Below, piece by piece: positions 9,668 to 40,655 of a stretch of 50,546 nt of DNA. The translations under genes and the position numbers were made by a program. Below the pieces are notes generated by a model that was given only the letters and a program-made list of their open reading frames with translations, ran no database searches and was not told where the DNA came from. This DNA comes from a virus. Numbering within the stretch: position 1 is the stretch's first letter; each line of letters begins with the position of its first letter. The stretch lies in the IMG/VR virus record IMGVR_UViG_3300014864_000003. One strand, 5' to 3'.

Positions 9668-11442
9668 TGCCGCAGCCCGTCCTCTTTGACCTTCAGGTCA
9701 ACGTTGAACACGCTCGCGACGCCGCCCGCCGTAAGTTTGCCGCACAAATCTGCCCAATACGCCGTGCCGCGATATCCCCCTCCGTTAAGTTTTAAGGACA
9801 GCGGAATGTACTGGCCGACATTACCGCCATTTGTCGTTTGCGGCGTGCCTTGTGTCCATATCGTCGTCCCGCCGCCAGTCACGCAATTCTGCCCGTTCGT
9901 CGGCACAGCCCCATACCCCACTACGATCTTGTACTGAACCCCATTGCTAGCCAAACTATTAGACGTTACGAGGTTCGCCACAATATCAAGTACACCACTA
10001 GACCCGGGCGTAAATGTCGTGTTCAATCCCATAAAGGTAAAGTTTGCCGCTGACGTGGGAGCTGCCGGGGACTGGTTTGCAACCTCGACGGTAATCGGCA
10101 CCTGGCTGGCCAGATAATTGCCATAAATCAAGTTATTGCCGTCCGGCGTAATCTCCTTGATACAATTGGCCGGCGTCCCGAAATTGCCGCAATAAAACCC
10201 CGTCACCATTATCGGTTTGGTGCCGCTCTCGATCTGCACCGCAATTGCCGCCGGCCCCGGCGCCAGCACGTGCCCACCATGCACCGTGCCAGGGAAACCG
10301 GCGCTGCCGCCACCCATCGACACCCCGATATTTGGCCCGGTGCCCCAGTCGATCTGCGGGAAGTAAATCTGCGTCCACGGAGCCAAAGATCGGATGCCGT
10401 ATGTCCCGTACTGACCCCACAAATGCGGCGCAAACAATACTGTGTTTCCCGCGTTGGCTGTCAGGTGAATGCTGGCTGTCGTCGCCGGCCCCACCGCAAT
10501 CAGCCCGTAATGCTGCGTATCGCTGTTGTCGATGTAGATAAGGTTGTCAGGGTACGTCGCAGGGCTCGGGTAAAACGCACCCTCTGCTATGACGTACAAC
10601 CCGAACGTCATCGTCGTATTACAACCAGCTTGCGGGCCGATGTTAAGCCCGCGCCCACCGGCCGCCGGGTTAGCTATATGTACGTTCGTCAACCGCCCAT
10701 GCGCCGAGCACACGAACTTCATCACGTCGGCCGCCAACGTGTTGCCGTCGAACCCGATATCGCGGAACCCTGCGCCCCGGCTGAAGCCCTCCGAGCCGTT
10801 GACCAGTACCGGCATCGGCGACAGGGCGCAGACCTGACTGGCCTCGCGCCCGGCGCCTTGCGTATCGATCTGGTAAAACCCCGGCGCCGTATTGATCTGG
10901 CTCGCAGCGCCCCAGCATCGGATCTGCGGCGTGTTGGGCTGCGGCTTCGGTAGCGGCGGGAAATACACATAACCCTGCTGGCCGCCCGCGTCGGTTTGCT
11001 GCGCCGCCTGGAGGTAGGCCGCGTTGATCGCCGCGCTGTCGTCGGTGCCCCAGGTGACGTACTGGCTCGATGCCGCTAGTGTTTGGCCGGCAGGCGCCGC
11101 CAAGGTCAGGTGAGTGGCGTCCGTGACCCCGCTTATCGTTGTCGCCAAGGGTGTCGTCGCGGTGGAGCCGGCATTGAGGATCACAATCCGCTTGCCCACA
11201 TCGGCTGCCGCGAAGGCACAGCGGAAGTTACCCGGCGCCACCGTCACGGCCGCACTCGACGCCGTGCTGGTGACCAGGCATGGCACCCGCATGGCATCGC
11301 CTACCGCGCCAAAATCCTTGACGCTGATCATGCCGGTGTCCAGGTTCCGCCTCGCCTCCGGCAGCTTCGCATTGCTCGCGTCCGGGTACATGTCCGCTCG
11401 CAACAGCACAAGCGCCAAAAGGCCCGCGGCAACCCGTCTCAC
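9664..11442 (-). CDS. Tailspike, pectate-lyase-superfamily-like (592 aa, GTG start)
   Basis: GTGA overlap with the upstream stop. The N-terminus shares ADMY.DA.NA.LP.A..NL with the 740-aa protein. It is followed by VKDFGAVGDA, a typical start of a pectate-lyase-3-type domain. Confidence 0.7.
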   Translation of the reverse strand: MRRVAAGLLALVLLRADMYPDASNAKLPEARRNLDTGMISVKDFGAVGDAMRVPCLVTSTASSAAVTVAPGNFRCAFAAADVGKRIVILNAGSTATTPLATTISGVTDATHLTLAAPAGQTLAASSQYVTWGTDDSAAINAAYLQAAQQTDAGGQQGYVYFPPLPKPQPNTPQIRCWGAASQINTAPGFYQIDTQGAGREASQVCALSPMPVLVNGSEGFSRGAGFRDIGFDGNTLAADVMKFVCSAHGRLTNVHIANPAAGGRGLNIGPQAGCNTTMTFGLYVIAEGAFYPSPATYPDNLIYIDNSDTQHYGLIAVGPATTASIHLTANAGNTVLFAPHLWGQYGTYGIRSLAPWTQIYFPQIDWGTGPNIGVSMGGGSAGFPGTVHGGHVLAPGPAAIAVQIESGTKPIMVTGFYCGNFGTPANCIKEITPDGNNLIYGNYLASQVPITVEVANQSPAAPTSAANFTFMGLNTTFTPGSSGVLDIVANLVTSNSLASNGVQYKIVVGYGAVPTNGQNCVTGGGTTIWTQGTPQTTNGGNVGQYIPLSLKLNGGGYRGTAYWADLCGKLTAGGVASVFNVDLKVKEDGLRQ

Positions 11443-21767: not shown

Positions 21768-22931
21768 CTAACCAGCCAGCCGAAGCGGTGCTGCCGCCGG
21801 CTTCGCCTTGTGGTTGATCGCGCTCTTCAGGTGCCCCGGCGTCAGGTGCAGATAGGTCGCCTCGATGACGGCGGTGGTGTCGCCCATGATCAGGCCGATG
21901 TCGCGCAAGGGGACACCGTTCATCGCCGCCAGGGACGCCCAGGTGTGCCGCAGGGTGTGAGGCGTCACCCACTCCATGCCGATCGCCGTGGTAAACGTGG
22001 TAAATCCCCCGCGCATGTATTTTGCGCCCTCCAGAACCCGGCCTTTTGCTTGGCCCCGCGGGTCCTTGGGCGCCTTGAGCCAAGCCTCTTGTAAGACCGG
22101 CATCAGGCGATCGCTGATCGGCACTTTGACCCTGCGTTTTTTGGTGATCCTCTTCCCCGGCACCTGATAGTCGACAAACCCGAGGCTCAAATTGACCCGG
22201 TCCCAGGTCAATTCCATGATGGCCGCGTAGCGGGCCGAGGTTTCCAGCCCCAATGCGATAAACACCATCACTCGCCAGGCGGCGTCCTGGGCGTGTTTAT
22301 AGCTGTGGTCCTGGTGCCCCCACGCCATCGCCTGGTCCCAGAACCATTGTTCCTGGACGGGGTCGAGAAACGCGGTTCTCGGCGCTCCCTGGGGTGGCAA
22401 CAGACCGTCGAAGGTGGGCACGTCTCCCGGCGCGATCAAACCGACGCTCGGCCGCGCCGCCCAGCGCAATACGGTCTGCAAGGCACCAAGCTCGCGGCGG
22501 ATCGTGCCGTTCGCCTTGTTGACCCGTTTGCTCGCGTACTCCTGTAGGAGGACACTGCCGGCGCTACCGGCGAGGTAATCCGCGGTGTACCCGCCCAGTT
22601 CGCGCCGGGGCGCGGCCAATATGTAGGTCGCGTTCCCTTTGCCGGCCCCGGCGGCGTGGACCAGCCACTTGGCCGACAGCTCGTCCACGGTGAGCGCCCG
22701 CGCCCTCCCCGGCGCCGGGGCGGTCACTATTGATCGCAGATCGGCGCAGAACTCCGCGAGATAAGCCTCAGCCTCAGCGCGGTCCTGCGTTTTTGTGCTC
22801 TGCTTTTTGGTGACAGATCCGGCGGCGTGGTCGGTCCACCAGACCTCCCAATACCCGCCGGTATTGGGTTTTGGGTTGAGCCGGATCTTCCGATAGTCGC
22901 CGATGCTCGGATGGTGCGATGTCGTAACCAT
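21768..22931 (-). CDS. int: Tyrosine recombinase / phage integrase (387 aa)
   Basis: C-terminal catalytic signature HTLRHTWAS...GDTTAVIEATYLHL (H-x-x-R ... Y), plus an N-terminal arm-type domain. Confidence 0.9.
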   Translation of the reverse strand: MVTTSHHPSIGDYRKIRLNPKPNTGGYWEVWWTDHAAGSVTKKQSTKTQDRAEAEAYLAEFCADLRSIVTAPAPGRARALTVDELSAKWLVHAAGAGKGNATYILAAPRRELGGYTADYLAGSAGSVLLQEYASKRVNKANGTIRRELGALQTVLRWAARPSVGLIAPGDVPTFDGLLPPQGAPRTAFLDPVQEQWFWDQAMAWGHQDHSYKHAQDAAWRVMVFIALGLETSARYAAIMELTWDRVNLSLGFVDYQVPGKRITKKRRVKVPISDRLMPVLQEAWLKAPKDPRGQAKGRVLEGAKYMRGGFTTFTTAIGMEWVTPHTLRHTWASLAAMNGVPLRDIGLIMGDTTAVIEATYLHLTPGHLKSAINHKAKPAAAPLRLAG

Positions 22932-26631: not shown

Positions 26632-27019
26632 CCCGGTCCCAGACGACCAGGCGCGGGCCGAGGCCGTCAAGGCCGGCCGCCAGGAGGCTGCGGCGAAGGC
26701 CCGCGCCGCCAAGGCCGCCAAGCAACAGCAGCAGGAGACCCCGACGCCGGAAGACCTGACTAGTCCTGTGCCCAACGGCGGTGCCGGGGACCAGGTCGAG
26801 GACATGGGCCTGGATGACCCCAATATGTCGCCGGCCGAGGCCAAGGAAGCGGGTTTGGTCTTGATGCGCGAGTTGTTCGGCGCCGGCAAGGTCGCCGAGA
26901 TGAAGGCGATCCAGAAAAAGTGGGGCGTCGCCAAGTTCTACGACATCCCGGTCGAGCGGGCGCACGAGTTCTACCGCGAGGCCGTGCAGGCGATGCACGA
27001 GACCGGTCTGCGGAAGTAA
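26459..27019 (+). CDS. Hypothetical protein (186 aa), Pro-rich and Ala/Lys-rich centre
   Basis: AAGGAGA SD 6 nt upstream of ATG 26459. No motif recognised. Confidence 0.6.
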   Translation: MQAEMKFTFDLGSPAGRAEFQRLFGHMLPSSPPPPPPQDWVEPILPSPTFDAPTTKVNPVPDDQARAEAVKAGRQEAAAKARAAKAAKQQQQETPTPEDLTSPVPNGGAGDQVEDMGLDDPNMSPAEAKEAGLVLMRELFGAGKVAEMKAIQKKWGVAKFYDIPVERAHEFYREAVQAMHETGLRK

Positions 27020-27025
27020 GGCCCG

Positions 27026-28189
27026 GTGACCGAGCACTCGCTCCTCGGGGCGTCGAGCGCCCATCGCTGGCTCAACTGCCCGGGCTCTTTCAAGCTCAGC
27101 CAGACCGCGCCGCACCGGCCGTCGTCCATCTACGCGGCGACCGGGACCCTGGCGCACGAGATGATCGAAGGCGCGGTGAGGAGCGGCAACGATACGGTCG
27201 TGCTGGACAAGGTCGGGCCGGTTCTGCGTGACGGTCACTTCATCGAGGTCGACCAGGACTTTGTCGCCGGCGTCAACGTCATGCTGGACTATTTCTACGA
27301 CATCAGCGCGTTGGCCGACTGGAACGATGTCGAGTTCCGGGTCGATCTCGCCGACTACTTCCCCGTCTCGCCGGCAGTCCCGGTGTTCGGCACGGTCGAC
27401 GCCGCGGTCCTGGCGGGTCAAACGCTGGAGGTGGTCGACTATAAGAACGGTTCCGGCATCACCGTCAGCGCGGTCGAGAACCCGCAGTTGATGTTCTACG
27501 GCGCTGGCGCCCTGGCGCAGCTGCCGGCGGCAGAGCGCGACCGGGTCACCCACATCCGGCTCACCATCGTGCAGCCGCATGGCCAGGGTGTCTCCCCGAT
27601 CCGGTCCTGGGAAACCTCCGTAGTCGACCTCCTGATGTGGGTGGACGAGGTGCTGGTCCCCGGGGTCGAGGCGTGCGCCCGGGACCAGGCCCCGCTGGTC
27701 CCCGGCACCTGGTGCCGGTTCTGCCCGGTCGTCCACGCCTGCCCTGCGCTGATGGCCGACGCCATCGAGATGGCCAAACGCGAGTTCGACGATTTGCCTC
27801 AGGAACCCGACGAGCTGGCCCGCGCCCTCGACGCCGCCGAGCGCGCCGAGCTGTGGATTACGAGGATGCGGGAGTTCGCCGTCAACCAGCTGGAGCACCA
27901 GGTGCGCATCCCGGGCTGGGGGCTGGTGCCGACGAGACCGACCAGGAAGTGGCTCCGGCCCGACACCGAGATCGCAGGTCTGCTTGGGCAGGAAGGGGTT
28001 ACCCACGACCAGGTCTGGGAAACCCGGGTCCGGTCCCCGGCCCAGATGGAAAAGGCCCTGGTACGCACCCGAGAGGGCCGGCGGATCTGGGGTGAGATCG
28101 CCTCGCTGATCGAGGCCCGATCCTCCGGGGTCAAGCTGGGCCGCAGCGACACGGCAGACCCTCGGGAGGATTTCACCGATGAACTTTGA
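27026..28189 (+). CDS. PD-(D/E)XK nuclease, DUF2800/Cas4-like (387 aa, GTG start)
   Basis: N-terminal LLGASSAHRWLNCPGS (DUF2800-type start), VVDYKNGSG...QLMFYG nuclease core, and C-terminal Cys cluster WCRFCPVVHACP. Confidence 0.7.
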   Translation: MTEHSLLGASSAHRWLNCPGSFKLSQTAPHRPSSIYAATGTLAHEMIEGAVRSGNDTVVLDKVGPVLRDGHFIEVDQDFVAGVNVMLDYFYDISALADWNDVEFRVDLADYFPVSPAVPVFGTVDAAVLAGQTLEVVDYKNGSGITVSAVENPQLMFYGAGALAQLPAAERDRVTHIRLTIVQPHGQGVSPIRSWETSVVDLLMWVDEVLVPGVEACARDQAPLVPGTWCRFCPVVHACPALMADAIEMAKREFDDLPQEPDELARALDAAERAELWITRMREFAVNQLEHQVRIPGWGLVPTRPTRKWLRPDTEIAGLLGQEGVTHDQVWETRVRSPAQMEKALVRTREGRRIWGEIASLIEARSSGVKLGRSDTADPREDFTDEL

Positions 28190-28349
28190 CGATCACCTGG
28201 TGCCCTCGCCGGCCGACATCCAGCAGGCCCGCCAGTATGTCCAGCTCGTCGTCCGAATGCTGGAGCAGTCGCAGTGGCTAGAAGAGCGTCGCGACGACGC
28301 GATCCGAACCCTGAGATACGTCAACTTCTACCTAGGAGATCGCAACTGA
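28179..28349 (+). CDS. Hypothetical small protein (56 aa)
   Basis: Hand translation: MNFDDHLVPSPADIQQARQYVQLVVRMLEQSQWLEERRDDAIRTLRYVNFYLGDRN. GGGAGGA SD 8 nt upstream; its stop overlaps the next start (TGATG). Confidence 0.45.
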   Translation: MNFDDHLVPSPADIQQARQYVQLVVRMLEQSQWLEERRDDAIRTLRYVNFYLGDRN

Positions 28350-28924
28350 TGGCCCCCAGCATCCGCACCCCGATCGGCGTTCTGAGCTTCCCCAATTTGT
28401 TCTCGCCGCGGCCTCGGGCGCCCGGCGGCGAGCCGGTTTACCAGTGCAGCATCTTGTTCGATCAGAACGCCCAGAAGGACCCGGCCTACGAAGCCCTGAA
28501 GCGGGCCGTGCGCGAGGAGATCGACGACAAGTGCGGTGCAGGCAAGAGCCGGGATGCGCAGTTCATGACGGGGGTGCGCTCGCCGTTTCGGCCGACTAGC
28601 GAGAAAGCCTATCAGGGCTATGACATGGTAAACGGGATTTTTATTTCGCCCTGGACTAAGTCGAAACCCGGTTTAGTTGACGCCGTGCGCAACGAAATCC
28701 TCGTTGTTGAAGACATCTGGGCGGGACAACTGGTCCGCGCGACGGTTTCGCCTTTTTGGTACAACACCAGCGGTAATCGCGGTGTGTCGTTCGCGCTAAA
28801 CAATGTTCAAGTTTGTCGTACTGACGGTCCTCGACTTGATGGCCGACGTTCTGCTACTCAAGACTTTGATGATTATACCGGTCCTGGCGCAATGGTATCA
28901 GCCGACGACGAAATCCCGTTCTGA
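28349..28924 (+). CDS. DUF2815-like phage ssDNA-binding protein (191 aa)
   Basis: ORF 28274-28924 trimmed to ATG 28349. IGVLSFPNLFSPR start and acidic C-terminal tail (DDEIPF). It sits next to the DUF2800-like nuclease and polA, as in known DUF2800/DUF2815/PolA modules. Confidence 0.65.
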   Translation: MAPSIRTPIGVLSFPNLFSPRPRAPGGEPVYQCSILFDQNAQKDPAYEALKRAVREEIDDKCGAGKSRDAQFMTGVRSPFRPTSEKAYQGYDMVNGIFISPWTKSKPGLVDAVRNEILVVEDIWAGQLVRATVSPFWYNTSGNRGVSFALNNVQVCRTDGPRLDGRRSATQDFDDYTGPGAMVSADDEIPF

Positions 28925-28989
28925 GGCAAGGTCAGGCTAGGTTTGGCGGGGTTATGCGAGGTATGGCCAGGTGAGGCAAGGTATGGATC
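28925..28989 (+). repeat. Pentanucleotide array 1a: 13 x GGYNN with 10-nt GGCNNGGTNN super-period
   Basis: Manual parsing. It starts on the base after the SSB-like stop codon. GG in 12/13 units; position 3 alternates C,T strictly over 12 units. Confidence 0.9.
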
Positions 28990-29054
28990 GTTTCTGGATA
29001 ATCCTTCTTTCGATCCTGTTTGTACTAACCGCAGGTTTGGAGTTCTAAGTTTGT

Positions 29055-29249
29055 GGCGGGGTTCGGTCGGGCGTGGTCCGGCAGGGTCCGGTGCGGCGCG
29101 GTTTGGTATGGCTGGGTTTGGTCAGGTCCGGCGGGGTCGGATCAGGTCAGCTCTGGTGGGGCTGGGTTCGGTTGGGTCTGCTAAGGCATGGCGGGGCAGG
29201 GCGGGGCTGGGTTAGGTCCGGTTTGGCCGGGCGCGGTACGCTAAGGTAA
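29055..29249 (+). repeat. Pentanucleotide array 1b: 39 x GGYNN, in register with array 1a
   Basis: Manual parsing. GG at positions 1-2 in 35/39 units and C/T at position 3 in 39/39. No indel. Confidence 0.9.
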
Positions 29250-29283
29250 GGAGTTTCAACTTTTCAAGGTACGGAGACACGAC

Positions 29284-29895
29284 ATGAAAAAGACCTATAT
29301 CTGCACTCTTCAAGGCACCACAGCTATCTTGATGCACCGTTTCGGCGATGCCGAGGAAATGGGGGCAAACACCCGCAAGGTTCATGTAAAGGCACAGGAC
29401 CCGCGGGAGACCGCCGAAAAGGGTGCCTACCGCAACGCCGCGGGAGAGTTGTACGTCCCGGGGACTGCTATTGCCCGGATGATCCGGGAAGGCGCCGCGG
29501 CGCACAAACAGCGTGGTTCGCGCAAATCGATGAAATACGTCATTTCGTCGGCCGTGCAGATCCCGGTTGAAGAGATTGTGATCCGGGACAGCGAAGGGGA
29601 CGCGATCACTCATTTCGAGATCGACAGCCGCCCGGTGGTGATCCCCTCGACCAAGGGACGGGTAATGCGTCATCGCGCCCGGGTAAACCCGCCCTACTGG
29701 CTTGAGTTTCCGGTGGTGATCGATGACGAGGTAGTGGACCCGGGCTTGGTCCATCAGATTTTCGGCGAGTGCGGTTTCACCCAGGGGTTGCTCGATTACC
29801 GTCCTGAGAAGGGCGGGCCGTTCGGCGTGTTCGCGGTCGTCTCGTGGGCGGCGCTGGAACAGACAGCAGCTGTGCTTGCTGAAGCTGCAGATTAA
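29284..29895 (+). CDS. Hypothetical 203-aa protein with RAMP/Cas7-like motifs, flanked by the pentamer arrays
   Basis: GGAG SD 8 nt upstream of the ATG. It is a clean ORF with ordinary, non-periodic composition. Motifs: AYRNAAGELYVPGTAIARMIREG and C-terminal EKGGPFGVFAVV. The functional call is inference only. Confidence 0.6.
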   Translation: MKKTYICTLQGTTAILMHRFGDAEEMGANTRKVHVKAQDPRETAEKGAYRNAAGELYVPGTAIARMIREGAAAHKQRGSRKSMKYVISSAVQIPVEEIVIRDSEGDAITHFEIDSRPVVIPSTKGRVMRHRARVNPPYWLEFPVVIDDEVVDPGLVHQIFGECGFTQGLLDYRPEKGGPFGVFAVVSWAALEQTAAVLAEAAD

Positions 29896-29911
29896 AGACG
29901 TTTGATTTTTA

Positions 29912-30236
29912 GGCTGGGTCCGGTACGGCGTGGCGGGGTCTGGTCGGGCGCGGTGCGGTAAGGCAAGGTCTGCTGCGGCAAGGCCGGGTCTGGTCGGGCG
30001 CGGTGGGGTTAGGTGGGGTGGGGTTTGGCTAGGTGCGGCATGGCACGGTGAGGTATGGCGAGGCCCGGTCAGGTTGGGTAGGGCTCGGTGTGGCGGGGTT
30101 TGGTCTGGTTGGGTAGGGCAAGGCTCGGTTCGGTACGGCAGGGCACGCCACGGTAAGGCGGGGTCAGGTTCGGTATGGTTCGGCTGGGTCAGGTCAGGCG
30201 TGGTAGTGCGGGGTTTGGCAGGGCAAGGTGAGGCTC
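29912..30236 (+). repeat. Pentanucleotide array 2: 65 uninterrupted GGYNN units
   Basis: Manual parsing. GG at positions 1-2 in 62/65 units and C/T at position 3 in 65/65. No indel over 325 nt. It runs into the polA GTG start. Confidence 0.92.
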
Positions 30237-32135
30237 GTTCTTGATCTTGAAACAACAAGCACTGCCGATCTTAGAAAGACCGGCAGTCATGCTTATGCAG
30301 AACATCCCGATACCAGGGTCACCGTTTTATGCTTTTCTGTTGACGACCACCCGGTTGAAACCTGGATTTCTGGTCCTCCACCGTCTTCATTTGTTGATGC
30401 AGTGAAATCCGGCGCGGTTGTTATCGCGCACAACTACCTTTTTGAGTGGAACATTTATTATAACAAACTAGTCCCGACGGGCTGGCCGATAATACCGATT
30501 AGCCAGTGGAGCTGCACGATGGCCAGAAGTCTGGTAGCTGGCTACCCGGCGTCCCTGGACCTGGTCGGCCGCGCGCTGAGGTTGTCCCAGCAGAAGGACC
30601 ACTCGTCCCGGGACCTGATGTTGCGGTTCGCTCGGCCCCGAAGCCTGGAACCCCTTGTCTGGTGGGACCAGAGTGATCCTGTGCGGTTTCAGGCTCTAAT
30701 CGACTACTGCAAAAAAGACGTGGCTACCGAGCGCGAACTCGATCGCCGGGTCCCGGAGCTATCCCCCCGCGAGCGGTTGGTGTTCGAGCTGGATCACGCG
30801 ATCAATCAACGAGGGCTGGGGGTCGATCATCACCTGGTCTACGAGCTGGCCGCTCTCGCCGACACTGCCCGAACCCGGCTGACCGGCGAGATCGTGCGGC
30901 TGACAGGTGGCCAGGTGCGCTCTCTCAACCAAGTGGCGCAGCTGAAGGCGTGGCTTGGCCGGCAGGGGGTCGAGACCGCCGATCTGCGCCGGGCGACGGT
31001 GCAGACCCTACTCGCCAACAGAGCCCTCACAGGAGCCCCCAGGACCGCGCTACAGGCACGTCTCGACGCCTCGCGGTCCTCTACCGCCAAGCTGACCGCA
31101 ATCGCGTCTGCGCGCTCCCAGGACGGCCGGGTGAGGGGTACGTTTCAGTATTACGGGGCGAGCCGGACCGGGCGGTGGGCCGGCCGCAGGTTACAGCCTC
31201 AAAATCTCTTCCGCGGCAGTATCCGAGACGTGCCCGGCGCGATCCGGACGATCCGCGCCGGTGCCGCCCCGGAGGATCTGAGCCTGCTGTTCGAGGATGG
31301 CGCGCTCGGGGTGATTGCATCTTGCCTGCGCTCGACGATCACGGCCGGACCGCGGCGCAAGCTGGCGATCGCCGACTTCAGCCAGATCGAGGCGCGCGTC
31401 CTGGCCTGGCTCGCCGGCCAGCAGGACGCACTGCAGGTTTTTCGCCGCGGCGAGGACATCTACGTCGCAACAGCGCGAGCGATTGGCTCCCCGAGCCGGT
31501 CCTTGGGCAAGGTCCTGGTTCTGGCCTGCGGCTTCGGTATGGGTCCGCTCAAGTTTCAGGCCACGGCACTGACCTATGGCGTGACCCTCGACGAGGCCGA
31601 GGCCGAGGCAGCGGTCAGGGCGTGGCGCACGGTCAACCATCACATCGTGACCCTGTGGTGGGAGAGCCACCGCGCTTGCCTGCGGGTTCTTGGCGCCGGC
31701 CCCGGCGCCCAGGAGCAGGTCGGATACGTCACCTTTATCCACCGGCCCGGGGCGCTCCTGGCGCGGCTCCCCTCCGGCCGGAGCCTCGTCTACCGGCACC
31801 CCCGGATTGAAGAGAACGAGCACGGCTACGACGAGATCACCTACATGGGGTCATTGGGCGGCAACTGGACCCGTCTGCGAGCCTGGGCCGGGCGCACGAT
31901 CGAGAACGTGACCCAGGCGGTGGCCCGTGACGTGATGGTCGAAGCGATGCTGCAGCTCCGGGACGTGCCGCTGATCGCGACGATCCACGACGAGCTGATC
32001 GCCGAAGTGCCCGCCGACGAGGCCGACCAGGTCCTCGACCGGATGCTGACGGCAATGCGGGGGACGCCTCTCTGGGCGCCGGGCCTGCCGGTCGACGCTG
32101 CCGGTTTTGTCGTAAAGAGATATACCAAGGGTTGA
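30228..32135 (+). CDS. polA: Family A DNA polymerase with 3'-5' exonuclease domain (635 aa, GTG start)
   Basis: Exo I LVLDLETTS, Exo II AHNYLFEW, Exo III YCKKDV. Pol motif A IADFSQIEARVLAWL, motif B SLGKVLVLACGFGMG, motif C ATIHDELIAEV. Confidence 0.9.
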   Translation: MRLVLDLETTSTADLRKTGSHAYAEHPDTRVTVLCFSVDDHPVETWISGPPPSSFVDAVKSGAVVIAHNYLFEWNIYYNKLVPTGWPIIPISQWSCTMARSLVAGYPASLDLVGRALRLSQQKDHSSRDLMLRFARPRSLEPLVWWDQSDPVRFQALIDYCKKDVATERELDRRVPELSPRERLVFELDHAINQRGLGVDHHLVYELAALADTARTRLTGEIVRLTGGQVRSLNQVAQLKAWLGRQGVETADLRRATVQTLLANRALTGAPRTALQARLDASRSSTAKLTAIASARSQDGRVRGTFQYYGASRTGRWAGRRLQPQNLFRGSIRDVPGAIRTIRAGAAPEDLSLLFEDGALGVIASCLRSTITAGPRRKLAIADFSQIEARVLAWLAGQQDALQVFRRGEDIYVATARAIGSPSRSLGKVLVLACGFGMGPLKFQATALTYGVTLDEAEAEAAVRAWRTVNHHIVTLWWESHRACLRVLGAGPGAQEQVGYVTFIHRPGALLARLPSGRSLVYRHPRIEENEHGYDEITYMGSLGGNWTRLRAWAGRTIENVTQAVARDVMVEAMLQLRDVPLIATIHDELIAEVPADEADQVLDRMLTAMRGTPLWAPGLPVDAAGFVVKRYTKG

Positions 32136-32995: not shown

Positions 32996-33135
32996 GGCTT
33001 ATTGTCCTGGCTTGTCCTGGCGGATTTTTTCGGTGCTGGTTTAGAAATTGCGAAACGGCGCCAGCGCCTGGTTGCCCCGGCTTATTGTCGTGCCGGTTTT
33101 TTCGGCGGTGGTTTCGGCAAATTGCGAAACGGCGC
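32996..33135. repeat. Degenerate tandem duplication of the 3' end of the giant gene
   Basis: 32996-33061 (non-coding copy) aligns with 33079-33135 (the last ~18 codons plus stop of the giant ORF). Shared blocks: ggcttattgtc...ttttttcgg..ggtttnnnaaattgcgaaacggcgc. Confidence 0.75.
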
Positions 33136-36100
33136 GACCGCCTTGTTCGCTTCGTAAACCCCGTAGGCCGCACCGGCCCCGGCAGCACCCAATTTGAGCG
33201 GGGTAGATAGTTGCGGCACGATGTACCCGATCGCCGGGATCGCCACGTCGCCGACCAACCCGGTGAACCCGCTACCCTTGTCGGCGGGTTTGGCCGCGCC
33301 GCCACTCCCGCCCAGCTTGGGCAGCGTCGGCATACCCCCGCCCAGCTTAGGCAGCGTCGGCATACCGCGGCCCCCGGCGCCAGGCGTCGGCAGGGTAGCG
33401 CCCTTGTGCCCAGCGAACTGCCGGGCTACCCAATTTGCCGCGGCGGGCGAGGTCCCGGCTTGCAACGCCGCGCCTGCCAAGATGCGGGAGACCGGCCCGA
33501 ACGTGCCCATTGCGGTCAGCCCCAAAGCCGCCGCCGGCACCCCGATCAGGTTAAAAGCGGCGCGGGCCTGGTTGAACTCGGCGGTGTTGGTCCCCGCGGC
33601 GTTGCTCCCTTTAGTCCCCAGGAGCGGGGTAAAAAGATCCTGCAGGTTTTTCGCGAACCAATTGATGCTGGCGCCGTGCATCATCGAGGCAAGGTCGCTG
33701 TCGTATTTCAGGTGGTTGAAGGTCTGCTGCAGCGGGTCGTACTTGCCGTAAAGCCCGGACCGTGACACTGCCATGCGCAAGAGGTAGGGCCAGAGATCCC
33801 CTTCCTCCGCGTGCTTTTCCAGCTGGTCCGGGGCGAACAGCAATTGCCGCACGACGCCGGTCATCAAGGCCGCGCCGACCATCGAGGCGGCGATCGCCAT
33901 AGTATTGACGACTGTGCCGGTGGTCCCGAACGTCGCCTGCACGTTGGCGCTAACCCGTCCGGCGCCACGGGCCGTGGCCTCTTCCCGGCCCCGGACGTAG
34001 GTGTGCCCAATGCGGGACAGGGCCGGGTTGAGCACGTTCTCGTGAAAACTGTAGTTGAAACTCATCAGCTGGAACGCCAGACCGATGCCGGGGACGTTGG
34101 CCAGAAGCGCCCGATCGACCTTTTTCGGGTCCTGGATGATACGGTCGGCCAGCCGCCGGACGGCCAGGCTGTAGGCGTCGCCCATCCCGACGTTGATGTT
34201 GGCCCCCATCCCGGCTTGTCCCGGTCTGTTGCTCAGCATCTCCGGGGTCGGTAGTGCCCCGTTCATGTCGACCATCCACCGAGCGAAGTCCCGGTGAATG
34301 CTGTCGGGGAGGCCCAGCTCGCGAAACCAGCGCCCGGCGTTGTCCCGGGCGTGACCGGCCGCAGTATCGGTCCCGGTATCGAGGAGGTTTTGCGACAGTT
34401 TCGACAAGAACCAGTTGCTGGTTCCGACGGTTGCCGCGCGCTGGCCGTTGGTGACTTGGGTCAGCCAGGTGGTCTTGTAGAAGTTCGTCAGCATCCGCTG
34501 CATCCGGGGGCTGTCGGAGTAATCCGCCCCCATCCGGGACAACATCGTGGTGTCGTGCATCGGCGAGGTGATGACCCCGAGGAACTCGGCCAGTGCGGTG
34601 CGGTCCTTTGCGCTGGCGGTCCCCATCAACTGACCGACCGACCGGCCCCAGGTCGCCAGACCGGCCCGAAAGTCGCCAGTCACCATCGAGGCGGCGATCG
34701 GCTCGTGCAAGCTGGCCCACATCGCGCGCTCCATCAGCACCATCGTGCCCGCGGCGAAAGCCGCGTTGTGCGGGATCTGGGTGAAGATGCTCATGCCGCC
34801 GTTGGTCTGGTTGCGTCCGGTGATGTCGGCCACCAGGTTCATGAACTTGGTCGTGTCGTGACCGTCCATGCCGTCGACCCGGGCGAGTTTCTCGGTTGCC
34901 TCCTTTAGGACCTGCCCCTCTGCCCCGAACCGCTCGGCGTAGGCGACCCGGCGGGCCACCGAGTGGAAATAGGCCGGGATCGCGACATCCGGGTCCTGCT
35001 CCATGTACTTGCGCATGATGATGTCGGCTTCCGGCGGCAGAACCCGAGCCTGTAGGTACTTGCCGGTGGGCGCCCCGGTGTCGAAATCGGCGAGCCCGCC
35101 ACCCGTCAGGTTAGCGTGCCAGCTCGCAGCGTTGGTCTCGGCGATGTAGTCCCGCAAATGCGAGTGCGCGTCGGCCGCCAGCAGCTGAGCGTCGCTCTTC
35201 AACTGGTTCAGCTCGGCCCGCTCGGCCGGCGTCGGGGCAGGGTTCTCTTCGATCTCGCCTTGCCGCAGCAGGTTCTTTTGGAGTTCCCGCATACTCGCCG
35301 GCAGGTCGATACTGCTTCCAGCTTTAGCCGCCGCGAGCTGCTTGCTCTCGCGCGGTAGCCCGGTCCACTTCTCCAAGAGTGCCTGCGGGTTCGACCCCGG
35401 AGCACCAAGCTCCTGGTCGAACATCAGCTCGTAAAGCTCGGTCGCGGACCTGGTAAAACCGGCCTTGTCGGAAGCGGCCCGGTACCGGTCGTAGTGCCGC
35501 GGGAAGTAGCCGTTGCGGGCGTAACCGGTATCGAGCCCGGCGTCGTGGCTGGTGCGCCAGGTCTGATCCAAGAGCTGGCGCACACTGCCGGCCGTCTTCA
35601 CGATGTTAGCGGGGATTGCTACGGTCCCGGCGCTAGAAAGGCTCGGGTCGACCGGCATTGTCCTCTCGCCGGTGACCAGGACGTGCCGCAACATCTGCCG
35701 CTCTTCCGTCGTCATCCGGTTGTACTCGTGAAACCCGTTGTTCTCCAGGATGTTGCCGTACTGGAAGTTCCACTTGCGGGTCTGTCGGTGGACCGCCTCC
35801 TCGAAGTTCTCCGGGGTCTGGCGCCCTTTGCCCGGCGCGGTGGCGAGGCTGTCCATGATCGGCTGCAGGATGGCTTTTGCCTCTGCCGGGGCGCGGTCGA
35901 CAATGATGTTCATCATGCCGCGGGTCGACTTGTACATCGCCCGGGCGCCGTCGGCGAACCGGGTGCTCAGCGGTCGCAGCGCTTTCGGGCGGTCCTTGTC
36001 AAACAACCCGGCCCGCTCGGCCAGGGTCCGGGTAAAGTTCTTGTAGCTGTTGATCTCGGCCTTGACCCGCTGGCCCATCGTGGTCCTGCCGCCGCCGGGC

Positions 36101-39100
36101 GCGGTGATCCGGTGGTGGTGCGGATCAGAAATGCCGAGATTGGAAAAGTCGCCGGGAGGCTTGCCGTTGGAGAGGACCTGCTCGCGGCGCAAAGCGTGGT
36201 GCAGCTCGTCGAAGGCGGCGAAGATCTCGGTCCGCTCGGCCTGTTTTGGGTAGGCCATCTGGAGCTGCCGGTCGACCATTGATATGTAGGCTTCATCCGG
36301 CATCACGATGCCGCGCGGGTCGACCCCATGCTGCTGCATTTGGCGCGCGATATAGGCTTCGTGCGCCCGGGCCAGCATCTCGTAGACGCTGGCATAGTAG
36401 TCGGCCTTGGGCGGATCAAAGGCGGCGCTCTCGCGACGGAACTCGGACGACTGGATGCGGAGCTTGGACCCTGCGCCCTCCAGGAGGACCAACTGATCCT
36501 GGGCCGCCAGCGCCCCCTTGGTCGGGTTGCCTTGGCGGTCGACTTTGGCGGCCTGGGTCTCCAGCGCCAGCCGCCGAGTGGCCAAGGCTACGTCCTCGTA
36601 GAACATCGTGTTGATGAGTTTGGCGAACGCTCCTTGCACGCTGTCGGAGGTGTCGAGCCCACTGTGCCGGGCATAGCGCGACAGGAGATTGTTCATCTGC
36701 GCCGGGTTGCCGGTGAACCGCTCGGCCAGCATGTGGTCAAGTCCGTGGGTCCACTCGTGACCGTAGCTGTTGGCGCCGCCCCTGATCGTGATCGTGCCGT
36801 TAGAGACGTAAGTGCCAAAGGGGCCGGGCTTGCTCTCGGGCTCAAGCACCAACCGAAGACGGCCGTTGAAGCTGGCGGCTTCGTGGGGCAGGCCAAGGCT
36901 CGCCATACCGTCCTGCATGGCACGGGTCATGTCGAGCATTGCCTGGACTGCCTGGTGCTGCTCGACACGACCCGTGCCGTGCCGCGGGACAGCAACCTCG
37001 ACCCCGGTGAAGCCGAACTTCGTCTGCATGTGCTGGGTCAGGATCTCGACCTGGCGCTTGACCGGGAAGTTGACCGCCAGGTCGGGATCGTGCCCGGCCT
37101 CCTCGAACACGCTCCGAAAAACGCTGGTCCCGTCGTTGAACTTGTAGTCCAGCAGGTCCCGTGCGCGGCCTACCTGGGGCGGGCCGGTGAAGGGTTGTTT
37201 TCTGCCGCCGCGCCGGTCTTCGACCTGGTCCTCGACGGTGCGGGTGCGCGCAGCCTCGCGTTCCAGGGCCGCCTCGCGCTTGGCGATCTGCTGATTGATC
37301 CGGCCCAGCCGGCGATCTTCGTCGGGGGTGCGGACCTTGTTGGTCAGCGCATCGCGGGTGGCCTGGAGTTTTGTTAAGGTTGGGTCGGCCGGCGGTGTTG
37401 GGGTTGGGGGTCTTTCTGTGGAAAGCTCGGGTCCGGTTTCGGACAGGGTTTCGCGGGGACCAGTGGTCCCGAGGTCTTCCAGTGGTCCCGGGACCACTGC
37501 CTGGTCCTCTAGTCGAGCTGGTGCCTCAGCCTGGTCGGCAATTGCCGGGCGTTCCTCGGCAATTGCCGGGCGCTCCTGCCTGGCCCGGAAGGCTGCGTTA
37601 TCGCGCTCCAGGGCCAGCCCATGTGCTTTGTTGACCTGGCGGTACTCGCGGTTCCAGTCGCGAAGCCTCTGCCGCGCAGCCTCCACCTGATCGGGCGGGG
37701 CGGTGTCAGGGTTATTCCAGAGCTTGTTGATCGGGCGGGGCTTGTTGTCCCGCAGCTCGACGAGCCGACGCCCGTACTCCGCGGCCGAGATGTCGGGGTT
37801 GAGCGTCCGGTAATCTTCCAGTGCGCGCGCGGCCGGCAGCTCTTCTGCGTAGGGTGTGCCACTGCGCCGCTGTGCGTCCGCGATGGCTCCCTCTGGGGTG
37901 GCGTCCTTGCCGACCACCTCGCCGGCTGCGTTTTTGGCGACGTACTGGCCCGGGACCGTGTGGTCCGGCTCGGTGGTGAGGCGGGTTGGCCTTTGCACTC
38001 CCCGCGACTGTTCCGGGTCGGCCGGGTCGAACGGCGTGCTGCGCCCCGACGAGGACCGACCTGTCGTTCGGATCGCCTCGGCCCAGGCTTCGGCTTCAGC
38101 GCGGGAGGTCGTAAAAACTGTCCGGCTCGGCCGGCCGTTCTGGTCGAGATGCTCGACCGCATAAGTGTTCCCTTTTGAGACGATGACCGGCTCAAACGGG
38201 TCTACCGGCGCCGCTTCGGCGGCGGGGGCCTCCGGGGCCGCGCGGACCGGCGGTTCGGCACCCACTTCTGGCCGCGCTTCGCCGGCGGGTAGGGCGGGCT
38301 GTGCAGCGGGTTGCTCGGCTCCCCGTGCTGCCGCAGTATCGCCCGGGCGCTCGCCAGGATCAGCTCCCACCCGAGGACCCCCCGGTATCTCTCCGGCTCC
38401 TGGGACCACTGGCGCAGGACCTCCCTCGCCCACAGGAGCTGGCTCTCCGGGTCGTCCGGCGGCGGCACCAGGTCGGTCAACGGGCTCACCTATTTCAGGG
38501 GGACGAGGTGATGGCTGAGAAGGTGGAGGTTCAGCGACTAGAACGGTTGCTCGTTCAGTTGGAACTGCTTCTGTCGGTCCCAGACCTGGCGTTTCCGTAC
38601 CCGCCGGAACTGCTGCTGCGGGCTCTGGACGAGCTGGAGTACCCTCCAGAGCTGGCAGAACGCGCGCAGGAGCTGCGGGCACAGTTGTCTGTGCGTATGG
38701 CTCGCCTGCAGGGGGCGCCGGTGCTGCAGTAGGCGGGAACTGCTCGGGGGCGATCTCGACGCGGCTGACCTCGCCCGGCAGCGGGAACCGCGACAGCGAC
38801 GGGGCCGGGGTGGGCGCCCCGACCTGTTCGGTGGCCGACGGCAGCCCGGTCGGAGCCGGCGCAAACTGCCCGCGGGCGGCGAGATCGACAGGTGAGGTTG
38901 CCGGCACCGGCGGCGCCGGCAACAGCCTGCGTGCTGCGGCCCCAGCGGCTTCGCCCGCGCCTTGAAACCCTGCGCCGAGTACGAACCCAGCAGGCGCGGC
39001 GAGAGCGGTACGCAGCGGATCGTAACCAGGCTGCATCTTGGTGGCGATGGACCCGACCTGTGCCAGCGGGTCGATCGCGGTATTGACGACGCCCTGGCTG

Positions 39101-39918
39101 AGCCCGCTCTCCAGCATCCGGCCGGCGACCGCTCGGCCGCCTTCCCCGACCACCTGCTCGACCGTTCTGCCGATCGCTGGGGCGGCTCGCGAAATAGCGC
39201 CGACCGTCTGCGCCACTCCGGGGACCCGGTTGATCCCGCTTTCCGGCGTAAGCACCCCGCCGGCGAGCTGGCCTCCGATCGCGGCGCCAAACTCCAGAGG
39301 ACCGCCGGACCAGGGCATCGCCTCATAGCGCGCTCTCGCCCCGGCGATCCGCAGGATCTCGGCCTGTGCCTCGGACGGGCTCGGCAGCGGTTTGAGCGCC
39401 CCGCCGGCATAACGGACAGCGGCGTTGTACTCGGCCCACTCCTGCGGGGTCATCTTCGCCGCCCGCTGCAGCTCGACCAACTGACCGCTGCCGGCCAATG
39501 TGCCGCCGTAATACGCGTCGGAGGCGTTCAGCGCGAAACGCTCTCCTAATGACACCGGGTCGGCCATTGCCGCGGCGCGCTGGCCTTCCAGATCCCGATC
39601 CCCCATCGGCACCACCGTTTGCGCCAGGGACGGGGCCACCGGGGCCACCGGGGCGACGTAACCGCCGCCCATCGGGTCGCTGGGAAACGAAAACGGCAGC
39701 GCGGCAGGCTCGGCAGCGACAGCAGGGGCAGGGGCGGGCGCTGTCACGAGCGGGGTCAGTTCAAGAAGAGGCAGATCCGGCTCGACTGGCGCTGGCCCCG
39801 GGGTCAGGGGTTTGAGATCGAGGACCGGCAGATCGTCGTCATTGTCGGGCCGCCGCGGTGGAAGAGCCGGCGCCGCCGATGACAGCGGGGTGAGTTCGAG
39901 GACTGGCAGGTCCGACAT
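33082..39918 (-). CDS. Giant virion/ejection-type protein (2,278 aa from ATG 39918)
   Basis: The ORF-track first codon is TTG; the ATG at 39918 overlaps the upstream stop (TGATG). It is the last and largest gene of the internal-protein block. It has a long Pro/Ala-rich region, one HExxH (HEWTH, nt 36745-36759), and Gly/Ala-rich hydrophobic C-terminal segments. Confidence 0.85.
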   Translation of the reverse strand: MSDLPVLELTPLSSAAPALPPRRPDNDDDLPVLDLKPLTPGPAPVEPDLPLLELTPLVTAPAPAPAVAAEPAALPFSFPSDPMGGGYVAPVAPVAPSLAQTVVPMGDRDLEGQRAAAMADPVSLGERFALNASDAYYGGTLAGSGQLVELQRAAKMTPQEWAEYNAAVRYAGGALKPLPSPSEAQAEILRIAGARARYEAMPWSGGPLEFGAAIGGQLAGGVLTPESGINRVPGVAQTVGAISRAAPAIGRTVEQVVGEGGRAVAGRMLESGLSQGVVNTAIDPLAQVGSIATKMQPGYDPLRTALAAPAGFVLGAGFQGAGEAAGAAARRLLPAPPVPATSPVDLAARGQFAPAPTGLPSATEQVGAPTPAPSLSRFPLPGEVSRVEIAPEQFPPTAAPAPPAGEPYAQTTVPAAPARVLPALEGTPARPEPAAAVPAGTETPGLGPTEAVPTERATVLVAEPPPSQPSPRPPEIGEPVDRPGAAAGRPGEPAPVGEGGPAPVVPGAGEIPGGPRVGADPGERPGDTAAARGAEQPAAQPALPAGEARPEVGAEPPVRAAPEAPAAEAAPVDPFEPVIVSKGNTYAVEHLDQNGRPSRTVFTTSRAEAEAWAEAIRTTGRSSSGRSTPFDPADPEQSRGVQRPTRLTTEPDHTVPGQYVAKNAAGEVVGKDATPEGAIADAQRRSGTPYAEELPAARALEDYRTLNPDISAAEYGRRLVELRDNKPRPINKLWNNPDTAPPDQVEAARQRLRDWNREYRQVNKAHGLALERDNAAFRARQERPAIAEERPAIADQAEAPARLEDQAVVPGPLEDLGTTGPRETLSETGPELSTERPPTPTPPADPTLTKLQATRDALTNKVRTPDEDRRLGRINQQIAKREAALEREAARTRTVEDQVEDRRGGRKQPFTGPPQVGRARDLLDYKFNDGTSVFRSVFEEAGHDPDLAVNFPVKRQVEILTQHMQTKFGFTGVEVAVPRHGTGRVEQHQAVQAMLDMTRAMQDGMASLGLPHEAASFNGRLRLVLEPESKPGPFGTYVSNGTITIRGGANSYGHEWTHGLDHMLAERFTGNPAQMNNLLSRYARHSGLDTSDSVQGAFAKLINTMFYEDVALATRRLALETQAAKVDRQGNPTKGALAAQDQLVLLEGAGSKLRIQSSEFRRESAAFDPPKADYYASVYEMLARAHEAYIARQMQQHGVDPRGIVMPDEAYISMVDRQLQMAYPKQAERTEIFAAFDELHHALRREQVLSNGKPPGDFSNLGISDPHHHRITAPGGGRTTMGQRVKAEINSYKNFTRTLAERAGLFDKDRPKALRPLSTRFADGARAMYKSTRGMMNIIVDRAPAEAKAILQPIMDSLATAPGKGRQTPENFEEAVHRQTRKWNFQYGNILENNGFHEYNRMTTEERQMLRHVLVTGERTMPVDPSLSSAGTVAIPANIVKTAGSVRQLLDQTWRTSHDAGLDTGYARNGYFPRHYDRYRAASDKAGFTRSATELYELMFDQELGAPGSNPQALLEKWTGLPRESKQLAAAKAGSSIDLPASMRELQKNLLRQGEIEENPAPTPAERAELNQLKSDAQLLAADAHSHLRDYIAETNAASWHANLTGGGLADFDTGAPTGKYLQARVLPPEADIIMRKYMEQDPDVAIPAYFHSVARRVAYAERFGAEGQVLKEATEKLARVDGMDGHDTTKFMNLVADITGRNQTNGGMSIFTQIPHNAAFAAGTMVLMERAMWASLHEPIAASMVTGDFRAGLATWGRSVGQLMGTASAKDRTALAEFLGVITSPMHDTTMLSRMGADYSDSPRMQRMLTNFYKTTWLTQVTNGQRAATVGTSNWFLSKLSQNLLDTGTDTAAGHARDNAGRWFRELGLPDSIHRDFARWMVDMNGALPTPEMLSNRPGQAGMGANINVGMGDAYSLAVRRLADRIIQDPKKVDRALLANVPGIGLAFQLMSFNYSFHENVLNPALSRIGHTYVRGREEATARGAGRVSANVQATFGTTGTVVNTMAIAASMVGAALMTGVVRQLLFAPDQLEKHAEEGDLWPYLLRMAVSRSGLYGKYDPLQQTFNHLKYDSDLASMMHGASINWFAKNLQDLFTPLLGTKGSNAAGTNTAEFNQARAAFNLIGVPAAALGLTAMGTFGPVSRILAGAALQAGTSPAAANWVARQFAGHKGATLPTPGAGGRGMPTLPKLGGGMPTLPKLGGSGGAAKPADKGSGFTGLVGDVAIPAIGYIVPQLSTPLKLGAAGAGAAYGVYEANKAVAPFRNLPKPPPKKPARQ

Positions 39919-40655
39919 CAACCGATCCTGCGGGATAGCGGGATCGGGCCGCCGATGTTCGTCTGGTATTGCGAGGCGCCCAACAGCGTCTGCGGCGGTA
40001 GCGGCGCCGGTTGGCCGGCCTTCACCACCTGGGCGAAGGCGTCGCCCAGGCTCGCCGGGGCACCAAGACCGCCGCCGAAAGGGCCGCTCTGTTGTTGCTG
40101 CAAGGCCAGCGAGGCGAGTGCCGCCTGCCGGGCCGGATCGGGGGCTGCCTCCACGGTAGACGTGGGCGTAACGAGACCCGACTTGAACTGCGGGTCACCG
40201 GTCTCGGCGTAGACCGGGGCCGCGTCGCTGCCGCCACCGAAAGCCGGGGCTGCGGCAGGACCGCCGCCGATCGGCACCCGGCCGCCCAGCGGGTCGATCA
40301 TCTCCAAATGGTTCTGCTCGTTACGCATATGCTTGAGCGGAAACCCCAGCCCGTGCTGCGGGTTCTTGTTGATCCAGTCGAGCACTACCGGGTCGGAGCC
40401 CAGATCCAGCGCCTTGCCGTGCATGTGGCGGGAGTTCTTGACCCCGGGGTTGACTTGGGCCTGGCGAGCGGCATCCCGATAGCCGGAGATGATCGCGACC
40501 CGGGCTTTGACCTCGGGCGGCATCGCCGCGACCATCACATCGAACCGGCGGGCCATCTCGGGGTCCACGCGATCGACACTCGATGCGCCGCCCGGAACCG
40601 CGTTGCCGCGCGCATAGGGCGCCAGGACCCCGCCGGGTTTTAAGGTGGCGGCCAT
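39918..40655 (-). CDS. Peptidase M15 (VanY/L-Ala-D-Glu peptidase-like) cell-wall hydrolase (245 aa)
   Basis: SGYRDAARQ...SRHMHGKALDL (H-x6-D zinc site) and a later NHLEM His. AGGAG SD 7 nt upstream. Confidence 0.75.
   Translation of the reverse strand: MAATLKPGGVLAPYARGNAVPGGASSVDRVDPEMARRFDVMVAAMPPEVKARVAIISGYRDAARQAQVNPGVKNSRHMHGKALDLGSDPVVLDWINKNPQHGLGFPLKHMRNEQNHLEMIDPLGGRVPIGGGPAAAPAFGGGSDAAPVYAETGDPQFKSGLVTPTSTVEAAPDPARQAALASLALQQQQSGPFGGGLGAPASLGDAFAQVVKAGQPAPLPPQTLLGASQYQTNIGGPIPLSRRIG

Follow-up and report, generated by a model that had tools for sequence, protein, structure and literature searches.

The viral stretch IMGVR_UViG_3300014864_000003 of the IMG/VR collection (50,546 nucleotides, hereafter the window) contains an open reading frame (ORF) for a 203-residue protein, which is enclosed by arrays of the pentamer NN-GGY. 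This ORF very probably encodes the Vipr effector of a Viral Interference Programmable Repeat (VIPR) system, with the two flanking arrays encoding its guide RNAs (vrRNAs). The assignment is based on the fold, homology, residue conservation, array anatomy, co-occurrence of gene and arrays, presence or absence of the cassette in related phages, and target matches. The locus is a VIPR cassette of a divergent, almost purely metagenomic clade, and it does not represent a new kind of system because VIPR has already been described in two 2026 preprints (bioRxiv 10.64898/2026.04.26.720920 and 10.64898/2026.04.26.720927). An earlier sequence-only reading of the window had recognised the logic of a protein plus pentamer arrays from the raw sequence alone and had put it forward as a new association; that novelty is superseded by the publication of the same system as VIPR in the preprints of April–June 2026.

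VIPR systems are mostly phage-borne and combine a small ancestral RAMP (Vipr) with guide RNAs of 9–16, and up to ~30, YNNGG repeats. One Vipr protomer is bound per repeat and sequesters GGY, which in the protein from Escherichia phage SUSP1 is contacted by H17, R138, D177, W178 and R179. Double-stranded DNA is recognised through pairing of the NN dinucleotides, every third target base being skipped, and transcription is silenced. In nature, VIPR is directed at competing phages and satellites; the targets lie on either strand, and the skip usually falls on the codon wobble position. VIPR has been proposed as an ancestor of CRISPR RAMPs (10.64898/2026.04.26.720920 and 10.64898/2026.04.26.720927).

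The 203-residue protein and its homologues

The vipr gene (29284..29895, + strand) starts with ATG, 6 nt downstream of a Shine-Dalgarno-like GGAGA motif. This ribosome-binding motif is contained in a leader (29248..29283, +) that by eye is similar to the equivalent stretch in L001 and L002, the closest relatives, whose Vipr proteins are 68% and 85% identical, respectively. The three peptides quoted in the sequence-only reading were recovered as residues 4–21, 48–70 and 161–188 of the translation, and the ORF itself and its enclosure by register-keeping arrays were likewise confirmed. A database search at E ≤ 1e-3 retrieved 453 homologues, and the alignment and profile used throughout, termed A1, was composed of 66 homologue sequences. 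A1 has 21 invariant columns, including H74-K75, D114, R116, R131, D171, R173 and G177/G178, which cluster in the motifs HKQRGSRKS, DSRPVVIPSTKGRxMRHR and GxxDYRPEKGGPFG. Given these homologues and invariant columns, the ORF is a real gene. In many members of this Vipr subfamily, A1 shows a variable linker followed by a conserved C-terminal tripeptide, AA[DE] (29887–29895 in the window).

An AlphaFold2 (AF2) model was built on A1, with a mean pLDDT of 88.5 and a pTM of 0.81. It comprised, in order, strand β1 (residues 2–11), an inserted helical pair (20–47), helix-1 (60–73), which is preceded by ‘PG’, strand β2 (97–101), a β-hairpin (112–134), strand β3 (139–147), helix-2 (153–166), a glycine-rich loop (167–182) and strand β4 (183–190). 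This predicted layout is that of a RAMP, with a single RRM core (β-α-β-β-α-β), the β-hairpin at 112–134 as the thumb and the glycine-rich segment 167–182 as the G-loop. The assignments made by eye in the sequence-only reading fit β1, the ‘PG’ followed by helix-1, and the G-loop of the model. When the model was compared with the PDB using Foldseek, the best 50 matches were all Cas7-family chains, namely Csm3 of type III-A, Cmr4 and type VII Cas7 (E ~1e-6, probability 1.00, TM 0.5–0.6). The same comparison with BFVD gave three matches at E ≤ 0.001, all of them uncharacterised viral proteins, one of which is labelled ‘Cas system-associated RAMP superfamily protein’.

At the sequence level, the protein matched no family in Pfam (E ≤ 1), NCBIfam (E ≤ 10) or PADLOC (E ≤ 10); Pfam includes a RAMP model, PF03787. 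Its sole match in PHROGs was phrog_4652, for which the function is not known, and phmmer with the single sequence against PDB sequences returned nothing. Profile A1, when used with hmmsearch against PDB sequences, yielded a single match, the SUSP1 Vipr protein (PDB 36pp, chain 36pp_D; E 1.7e-8). Alignment of the 66-homologue profile with SUSP1 Vipr (gene from KT454805.2, protein ALH47069.1) using hhalign gave a probability of 97.1% and an E-value of 5.7e-11 over 171 columns, nearly the entire profile. The RAMP likeness was therefore found solely via structure or the Vipr bridge, since plain profile searches fail. The RAMP (Cas7/Csm3/Cmr4-like) character proposed from motifs was thus borne out by the AF2 model, with its RRM core and exclusively Cas7-family neighbours in the PDB, and by the hhalign match, and was not reflected in the hidden Markov model profiles of the curated families.

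The five residues of SUSP1 Vipr that contact GGY align with H18, R131, D171, Y172 and R173 of the protein encoded in the window. R131, D171 and R173 show no variation among the 66 sequences, conservation of H18 is 90% or higher, and the stacking aromatic is Y172 at the position of SUSP1 W178.

Pentamer arrays and their association with the gene

The NN-GGY arrays that enclose vipr are found on the + strand only, and a single register is kept within each. Array A (28923–28982, +) consists of 12 units and begins at the stop codon of the gene for a single-stranded-DNA-binding protein (SSB) of the gp2.5/Enc34 type (28274..28924, +), which was identified from library profile matches. A non-repeat spacer of 70 nt (28983..29052, +) separates it from array B (29053–29247, +), which comprises 39 units in one register, including four degenerate ones (GAT, GCT, GCT and GCT), and ends with AAGGTAAGGA right before the vipr leader. 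Downstream of vipr, array C (29910–30234, +) comprises 65 units in one register, with an uninterrupted tract of 34 perfect units and three degenerate units (GCT at 29970, GCC at 30145 and TGC at 30205). It continues into the GTG start codon of the gene for a family A DNA polymerase (PolA; 30228..32135, +), likewise identified from library profile matches. No other array of at least six units was found on either strand of the 50.5-kb window. Long ORFs that run across the arrays (28943–29215 and 29930–30244, and 29212–30258 on the minus strand) are spurious by-products of the GGY repeat, which is stop-free.

Array C shows a partial internal duplication (29911–29960 versus 29961–30010, 80% identity), in which GGGTCTGGTCGGGCGCGGTG is present twice, resulting in two adjacent guide segments with a nearly identical NN code. 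About 30 nt past this array, a hairpin with a stem of 12 pairs (ACTGCCG...CGGCAGT) was predicted at 30261–30287, within the first 20 codons of PolA, and a scan classed it as terminator-like for the minus strand. Because siblings that lack the cassette conserve the region as well, coding constraint may explain this hairpin. The spacer at 28983–29052 may serve the first guide RNA as a tail or processing element. Two hairpins are possible within it, and its fold is not significantly more stable than that of shuffled sequences (z −1.8). No counterpart was found in L001, L002 or any other homologue or sibling locus compared, and on these two grounds the spacer was rejected as a conserved tail. A search of Rfam (E-value mode) over 28700–30400 gave noise only, with no hammerhead or other RNA family.

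The association between gene and arrays was assessed on 80 IMG/VR loci encoding a homologue, with an array defined as at least six units within 700 bp on the same strand. Such an array was present beside 77 of the 80 homologues, and any array on the opposite strand was observed in two. All 16 NN dinucleotides are used across 161 distinct arrays, and Y is approximately evenly C or T. The interrupting units of these arrays are diverse, TGC/TGT being the commonest, and ‘GCT’ units were therefore rejected as a family-wide punctuation. In L001 and L002, the arrays occupy the same positions as in the window, with unrelated NN content and different lengths. L002 additionally carries a third GGY-NN array (L002:1348–1447) of 20 units with an internal duplication of ~45 nt, between the homologue of orf26459 and the exonuclease gene; the equivalent junction in the window (27019–27026) has no array. 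Tails at the 3′ end are present in other subclades of the same Vipr family, represented by L028, L049 and L008. There, textbook arrays (L028:4432–5200, L049:5555–6100 and L008:5570–6170) consist of variable tracts of 11–25 units, each with a conserved tail, as exemplified by AAGGAATGGTTTAATGAATTTAATT in L028.

The cassette is directly bordered by the SSB and PolA genes, with a DUF2800/PD-(D/E)XK exonuclease gene and the SSB gene on its 5′ side and PolA on its 3′ side. This replication-gene neighbourhood of vipr is conserved in L001 and L002 only, and in other subclades the gene has other neighbours, such as an upstream gene for an ERF annealing or a DUF3310 protein. Clustering of neighbouring ORFs revealed no accessory gene common to the 80 loci, only the subclade-specific DUF3310 and ERF genes, and the two largest neighbour clusters in related loci are spurious ORFs translated from arrays. 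Fifteen sibling phages (L082–L096) keep the helicase–exonuclease–SSB–PolA order without a vipr gene and without any array, their SSB and PolA proteins being 55–86% and 53–81% identical to those of the window, respectively. The tie between vipr and replication genes is thus incidental: the setting in a phage replication operon, to which the sequence-only reading had drawn attention, is real in the window and is not a conserved association. The co-occurrence of gene and arrays, together with their joint absence from the siblings, indicates that they form one accessory cassette in a variable slot. The suggestion that a stand-alone RAMP works with the repeats that flank it is accordingly supported by the fold, the homology to Vipr and the co-occurrence in 77 of 80 loci.

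In the cassette-free sibling L084, the slot between SSB and PolA holds a Cys/His-rich ORF of 165 residues with HNH-like motifs (6144–6641), and PolA (7306–10005) has 899 residues compared with 635, with an insert resembling an intein. The SSB–PolA slot, together with its flanks, seems to be a hotspot of selfish elements.

Concerning distribution, the profile was matched by 5,819 clusters at 50% identity, almost entirely metagenomic. Among 185k species genomes, relatives of Vipr were found in 10 loci of metagenome-assembled genomes only, which belong to mixed phyla, and tblastn of the protein against GenBank phage records gave no match.

Predicted targets, proposed mechanism and rival explanations

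The arrays were converted to NN strings, and these were scanned against 1.2–1.9 Mb of DNA from related phages, the skip between dinucleotides being set to 0, 1, 2 or 3 bases. At a threshold of at least 18 of 20 NN matches, 11 hits were obtained with the 1-nt skip and none with each of the other three, while in the shuffled-guide controls the maximum was 18, reached once in each of two of the three shuffles. The hits at this threshold stem from two predicted guides, A and C3, and lie in SSB and PolA genes. Guide A (28923–28972, +; NN = GA AA CA TA TT GG TA GA AT CA), formed by the first ten units of array A, corresponds to the sense strand of the sibling SSB codons for EKQY[SK]GYDIP, with 18/20 matches in L002 and 17/20 in L082, L083, L086 and L087. 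The own SSB allele of this site (28601–28630, EKAYQGYDMV) scores 14/20, as counted by hand from the sequences. Guide C3 (30167..30224, +; NN = TC AT TC TG CA CA GT AG GG TT AG), formed by the last variable units of array C, corresponds to the antisense strand of the sibling PolA codons for LNPLTWWHETD, with 21/22 matches in L095, where the site reads CTCAACCCGCTGACGTGGTGGCACGAGACGGAC, 20/22 in L092, L094 and L096, and 19/22 in L001. The own PolA allele of this site (30645–30677, LEPLVWWDQSD) scores 16/22. The NN match thus amounts to 85–95% at the sibling sites and 70–73% at the own alleles, which differ at six NN positions each. At both sites the skipped base is the codon wobble position, and in both guides the matched part stops just short of the conserved array end AAGGT-N-(A/T)-GG(A/C). 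No self-targeting was found, the best self match in the guide-A search being 15/20.

Collection-wide pattern scans were performed to remove the bias of a hand-picked target database. With one unit set as a wildcard, which leaves 20 fixed bases, the C3 pattern occurred in four of 2.9 million viral contigs, in every case at the PolA site; these contigs are siblings with PolA proteins ~53% identical and differing wobble bases. A relaxed guide-A pattern (17 fixed bases) was found in 12 contigs, the SSB site accounting for 11 of these. The result was independently replicated with the L001 cassette, whose first guide matched the sibling SSB codons for FALNNLQICR at 18/18 positions, with the skip of 1 only. 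Guide A is in the sense orientation of the SSB mRNA, and guide C3 and the first guide of L001 are antisense to their genes, so that targets lie on both DNA strands, as reported for VIPR.

Array transcription and processing, filament formation and silencing would proceed as in the systems of SUSP1 and Pseudomonas fulva, on which the following scheme is modelled. The arrays would be transcribed on the + strand, probably within the helicase–exonuclease–SSB–PolA transcript. Vipr protomers would bind the (GGY-NN)n guide RNA, one per pentamer, and assemble into a helical filament, in which H18, R131, D171, Y172 and R173 may flip out and hold each GGY so that NN is presented for pairing. The filament would pair with double-stranded DNA in a gapped register, with two bases read and one skipped, and the resulting R-loop triplex would block transcription. 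The first and the last guides would read codon positions 1–2 of the SSB and PolA genes of siblings and skip the wobble base. We infer that the phage uses the cassette as an accessory weapon against its relatives.

Several results weigh against the assignment to VIPR. The protein is only 23% identical to SUSP1 Vipr in the profile alignment, and the pairwise BLASTP match between the two proteins is weak (E 6e-4) and restricted to the C-terminal ~60–61 residues. No vap accessory gene is present at the locus, although ‘typical’ VIPR loci carry one. No repeated conserved 3′ tail follows the guide tracts in the window, and SUSP1 has such a tail. No sigma-70-like promoter was detected on the + strand near the arrays, which suggests guide processing from the transcript of the operon. 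As to the targets, none is perfect: the exact 10- and 11-unit patterns gave no hit in viral and metagenome contigs, and array B and units 0–47 of array C had no target above control levels. With regard to the missing vap gene, the preprints describe VIPR types that vary in array architecture and accessory genes, and they call vap ‘typical’ and do not call it universal. Six vap genes (vap1–6) are named for seven types (10.64898/2026.04.26.720920 and 10.64898/2026.04.26.720927), so that one type might lack a vap gene specific to it, although this is not stated there.

Given that its best structural matches are Csm3, Cmr4 and type VII Cas7, and that one of its viral structural neighbours is annotated as a Cas-associated RAMP, the protein might instead be a Cas7/Csm3 subunit of a phage-borne, possibly decayed, CRISPR-Cas system of type III or I that uses conventional CRISPR RNAs. 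We consider this extremely improbable. The 50.5-kb window contains no CRISPR-like repeat-spacer array, no Cas family is matched by either flanking gene, and those of the long ORFs scanned that PHROGs could name have ordinary phage functions. The protein has no Cas7-family match in PADLOC, Pfam or NCBIfam, its only sequence-level relative of solved structure is Vipr rather than a Cas protein, and it co-occurs with pentamer arrays instead. A decayed CRISPR system was excluded for want of a repeat-spacer array, Cas-family flanks and a PADLOC match. Very improbable, too, is a role of the arrays as DNA elements within the replication module, for example as origin iterons or as a loading zone for SSB or polymerase, with the protein serving as a replication factor that binds the pentamers in single- or double-stranded DNA. 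The position of the cassette between SSB and PolA in a replication operon would agree with this, as would the ERF-type annealing protein that precedes the gene in other subclades, but the 15 siblings with the same module have neither gene nor arrays, which shows that phages of this type can replicate without either. Moreover, the neighbourhood is not conserved in the family, NN is hypervariable between close relatives, unlike in iterons, and gene and arrays strictly share one orientation. When read by the VIPR skip rule, the NN code matches coding sequences of other phages, and the solved homologue binds RNA.

An improbable, though less far-fetched, variant retains a VIPR-like filament and has it act on RNA, either on mRNAs of competitors or in regulation of the phage's own genes, for instance by tuning the translation of PolA. 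In its favour, guide C3 complements the sense strand of PolA and hence the PolA mRNA. Array C, moreover, reaches into the PolA start codon, and the arrays probably belong to the transcript of the operon. In vitro, pairing with single-stranded RNA is possible for SUSP1 Vipr filaments; RNA targets gave incomplete filaments in the cryo-electron microscopy work (10.64898/2026.04.26.720920 and 10.64898/2026.04.26.720927). Furthermore, guide A, being of the same sense as the SSB mRNA, cannot pair with it, in contrast to the antisense first guide of L001, and targets on both strands, as expected for DNA recognition, make an RNA-only mode unlikely. The worse matches at the own-gene sites (70–73%) argue against self-regulation.

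Phage context, related systems and biological meaning

The window is an apparently near-complete genome of a temperate phage, with integrase, primase, helicase, TerL, portal and major head protein genes assigned through PHROGs. The temperate lifestyle is indicated by a gene of the tyrosine-integrase family at 21768–22931 (−). An ORF for 2,279 residues at 33082–39921 (−) and most other large minus-strand ORFs at 40.6–47.8 kb are without a PHROGs match. The phage group is poorly annotated and abundant in IMG/VR, where 126 TerL relatives were found, the 80 kept ones being 74–96% identical; among the 185k species genomes, no TerL relative was found.

Taken as a VIPR cassette, the locus is closest to type II VIPR, as represented by Escherichia phage SUSP1 (PDB 36pp) and a Pseudomonas fulva prophage. 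They share a single-RRM RAMP of ~200 residues with G-loop and thumb, homology at 97% probability in hhalign with aligned GGY-contact positions, a phage-borne location, and flanking same-strand (GGY-NN)n arrays with hypervariable NN. They differ in protein sequence (~23% identity, Y172 for W178) and in the vap gene, which is lacking here. Each type II tract ends in a conserved and structured 3′ tail, whereas no per-tract promoter, conserved 3′ tail or pseudoknot was identified in the window, where the arrays are continuous (39 and 65 units, with one uninterrupted tract of 34), with degenerate GCY/TGC/GAT units as their sole punctuation. The cassette sits within a replication operon, with array C ending in the PolA start codon, and its predicted targets are sibling alleles of the flanking genes, whereas those of the type II systems studied are a satellite or lysogeny regulators. 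In the preprints, where the types are classified with a Vipr tree, types I and III–VII include ‘staggered’ arrays of overlapping vrRNAs, which are tail-less, and arrays interspersed with hammerheads (10.64898/2026.04.26.720920 and 10.64898/2026.04.26.720927). The tail-less contiguous arrays of the window resemble the ‘staggered’ ones as described there, and they differ from the hammerhead-interspersed types in that no hammerhead or other Rfam family was detected at 28700–30400. With the Cas7 family of class 1 CRISPR-Cas systems (Csm3, Cmr4 and type VII Cas7), the protein shares the RRM core, G-loop and thumb, and Cas7-family subunits likewise polymerise on a guide RNA in a fixed nucleotide register. 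For the protein in the window, the register would be 5 nt along the guide and 3 nt along the target, compared with 6 nt, with non-contiguous guide information, and the locus has no CRISPR array, no cas partners and no sequence-profile match to Cas7 families.

The free-standing homing endonucleases of T-even phages, such as SegF and SegG, cause marker exclusion of sibling phages. It is possible, if doubtful, that the clade represents a tail-less, vap-less VIPR cassette acting as a site-linked selfish element, that is, an RNA-guided analogue of such marker exclusion. The cassette would occupy a slot between two essential replication genes, and its outermost guides would read the siblings' alleles of these genes, the own linked alleles being mismatched. 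As with SegF and SegG, a selfish cassette located between essential genes would attack the corresponding locus of cassette-free siblings during co-infection. The outer guides match sibling alleles of the flanking SSB and PolA genes, and the equivalent slot of L084 holds the HNH-like ORF. The proposed action differs from marker exclusion in consisting of RNA-guided binding and silencing, not DNA cleavage. A parallel to the selfish-element logic is found in L001, whose first guide independently matches sibling SSB genes.

The Vipr clade is large in diversity and widespread, with its 5,819 clusters to be compared with the 670 representative Vipr proteins of the preprint (10.64898/2026.04.26.720920 and 10.64898/2026.04.26.720927). 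The locus in the window is a compact natural example, with one gene for 203 residues, no accessory gene and very long continuous arrays. It offers concrete predicted targets, namely EKQY[SK]GYDIP of SSB for guide A and LNPLTWWHETD of PolA for guide C3, with the own alleles as built-in mismatch controls, and thereby allows tests of mismatch tolerance, of tail-less guide processing and of linked allele exclusion by VIPR cassettes. The tailed arrays of L028, L049 and L008 are good material for defining guide boundaries comparatively. A modestly new lead is that the guides at the edges of the cassette aim at sibling alleles of its own flanking replication genes. If the selfish-element reading holds true, the replication genes of a co-infecting rival would be shut down, and genomes or recombinants with the cassette and resistant flanks would be favoured.

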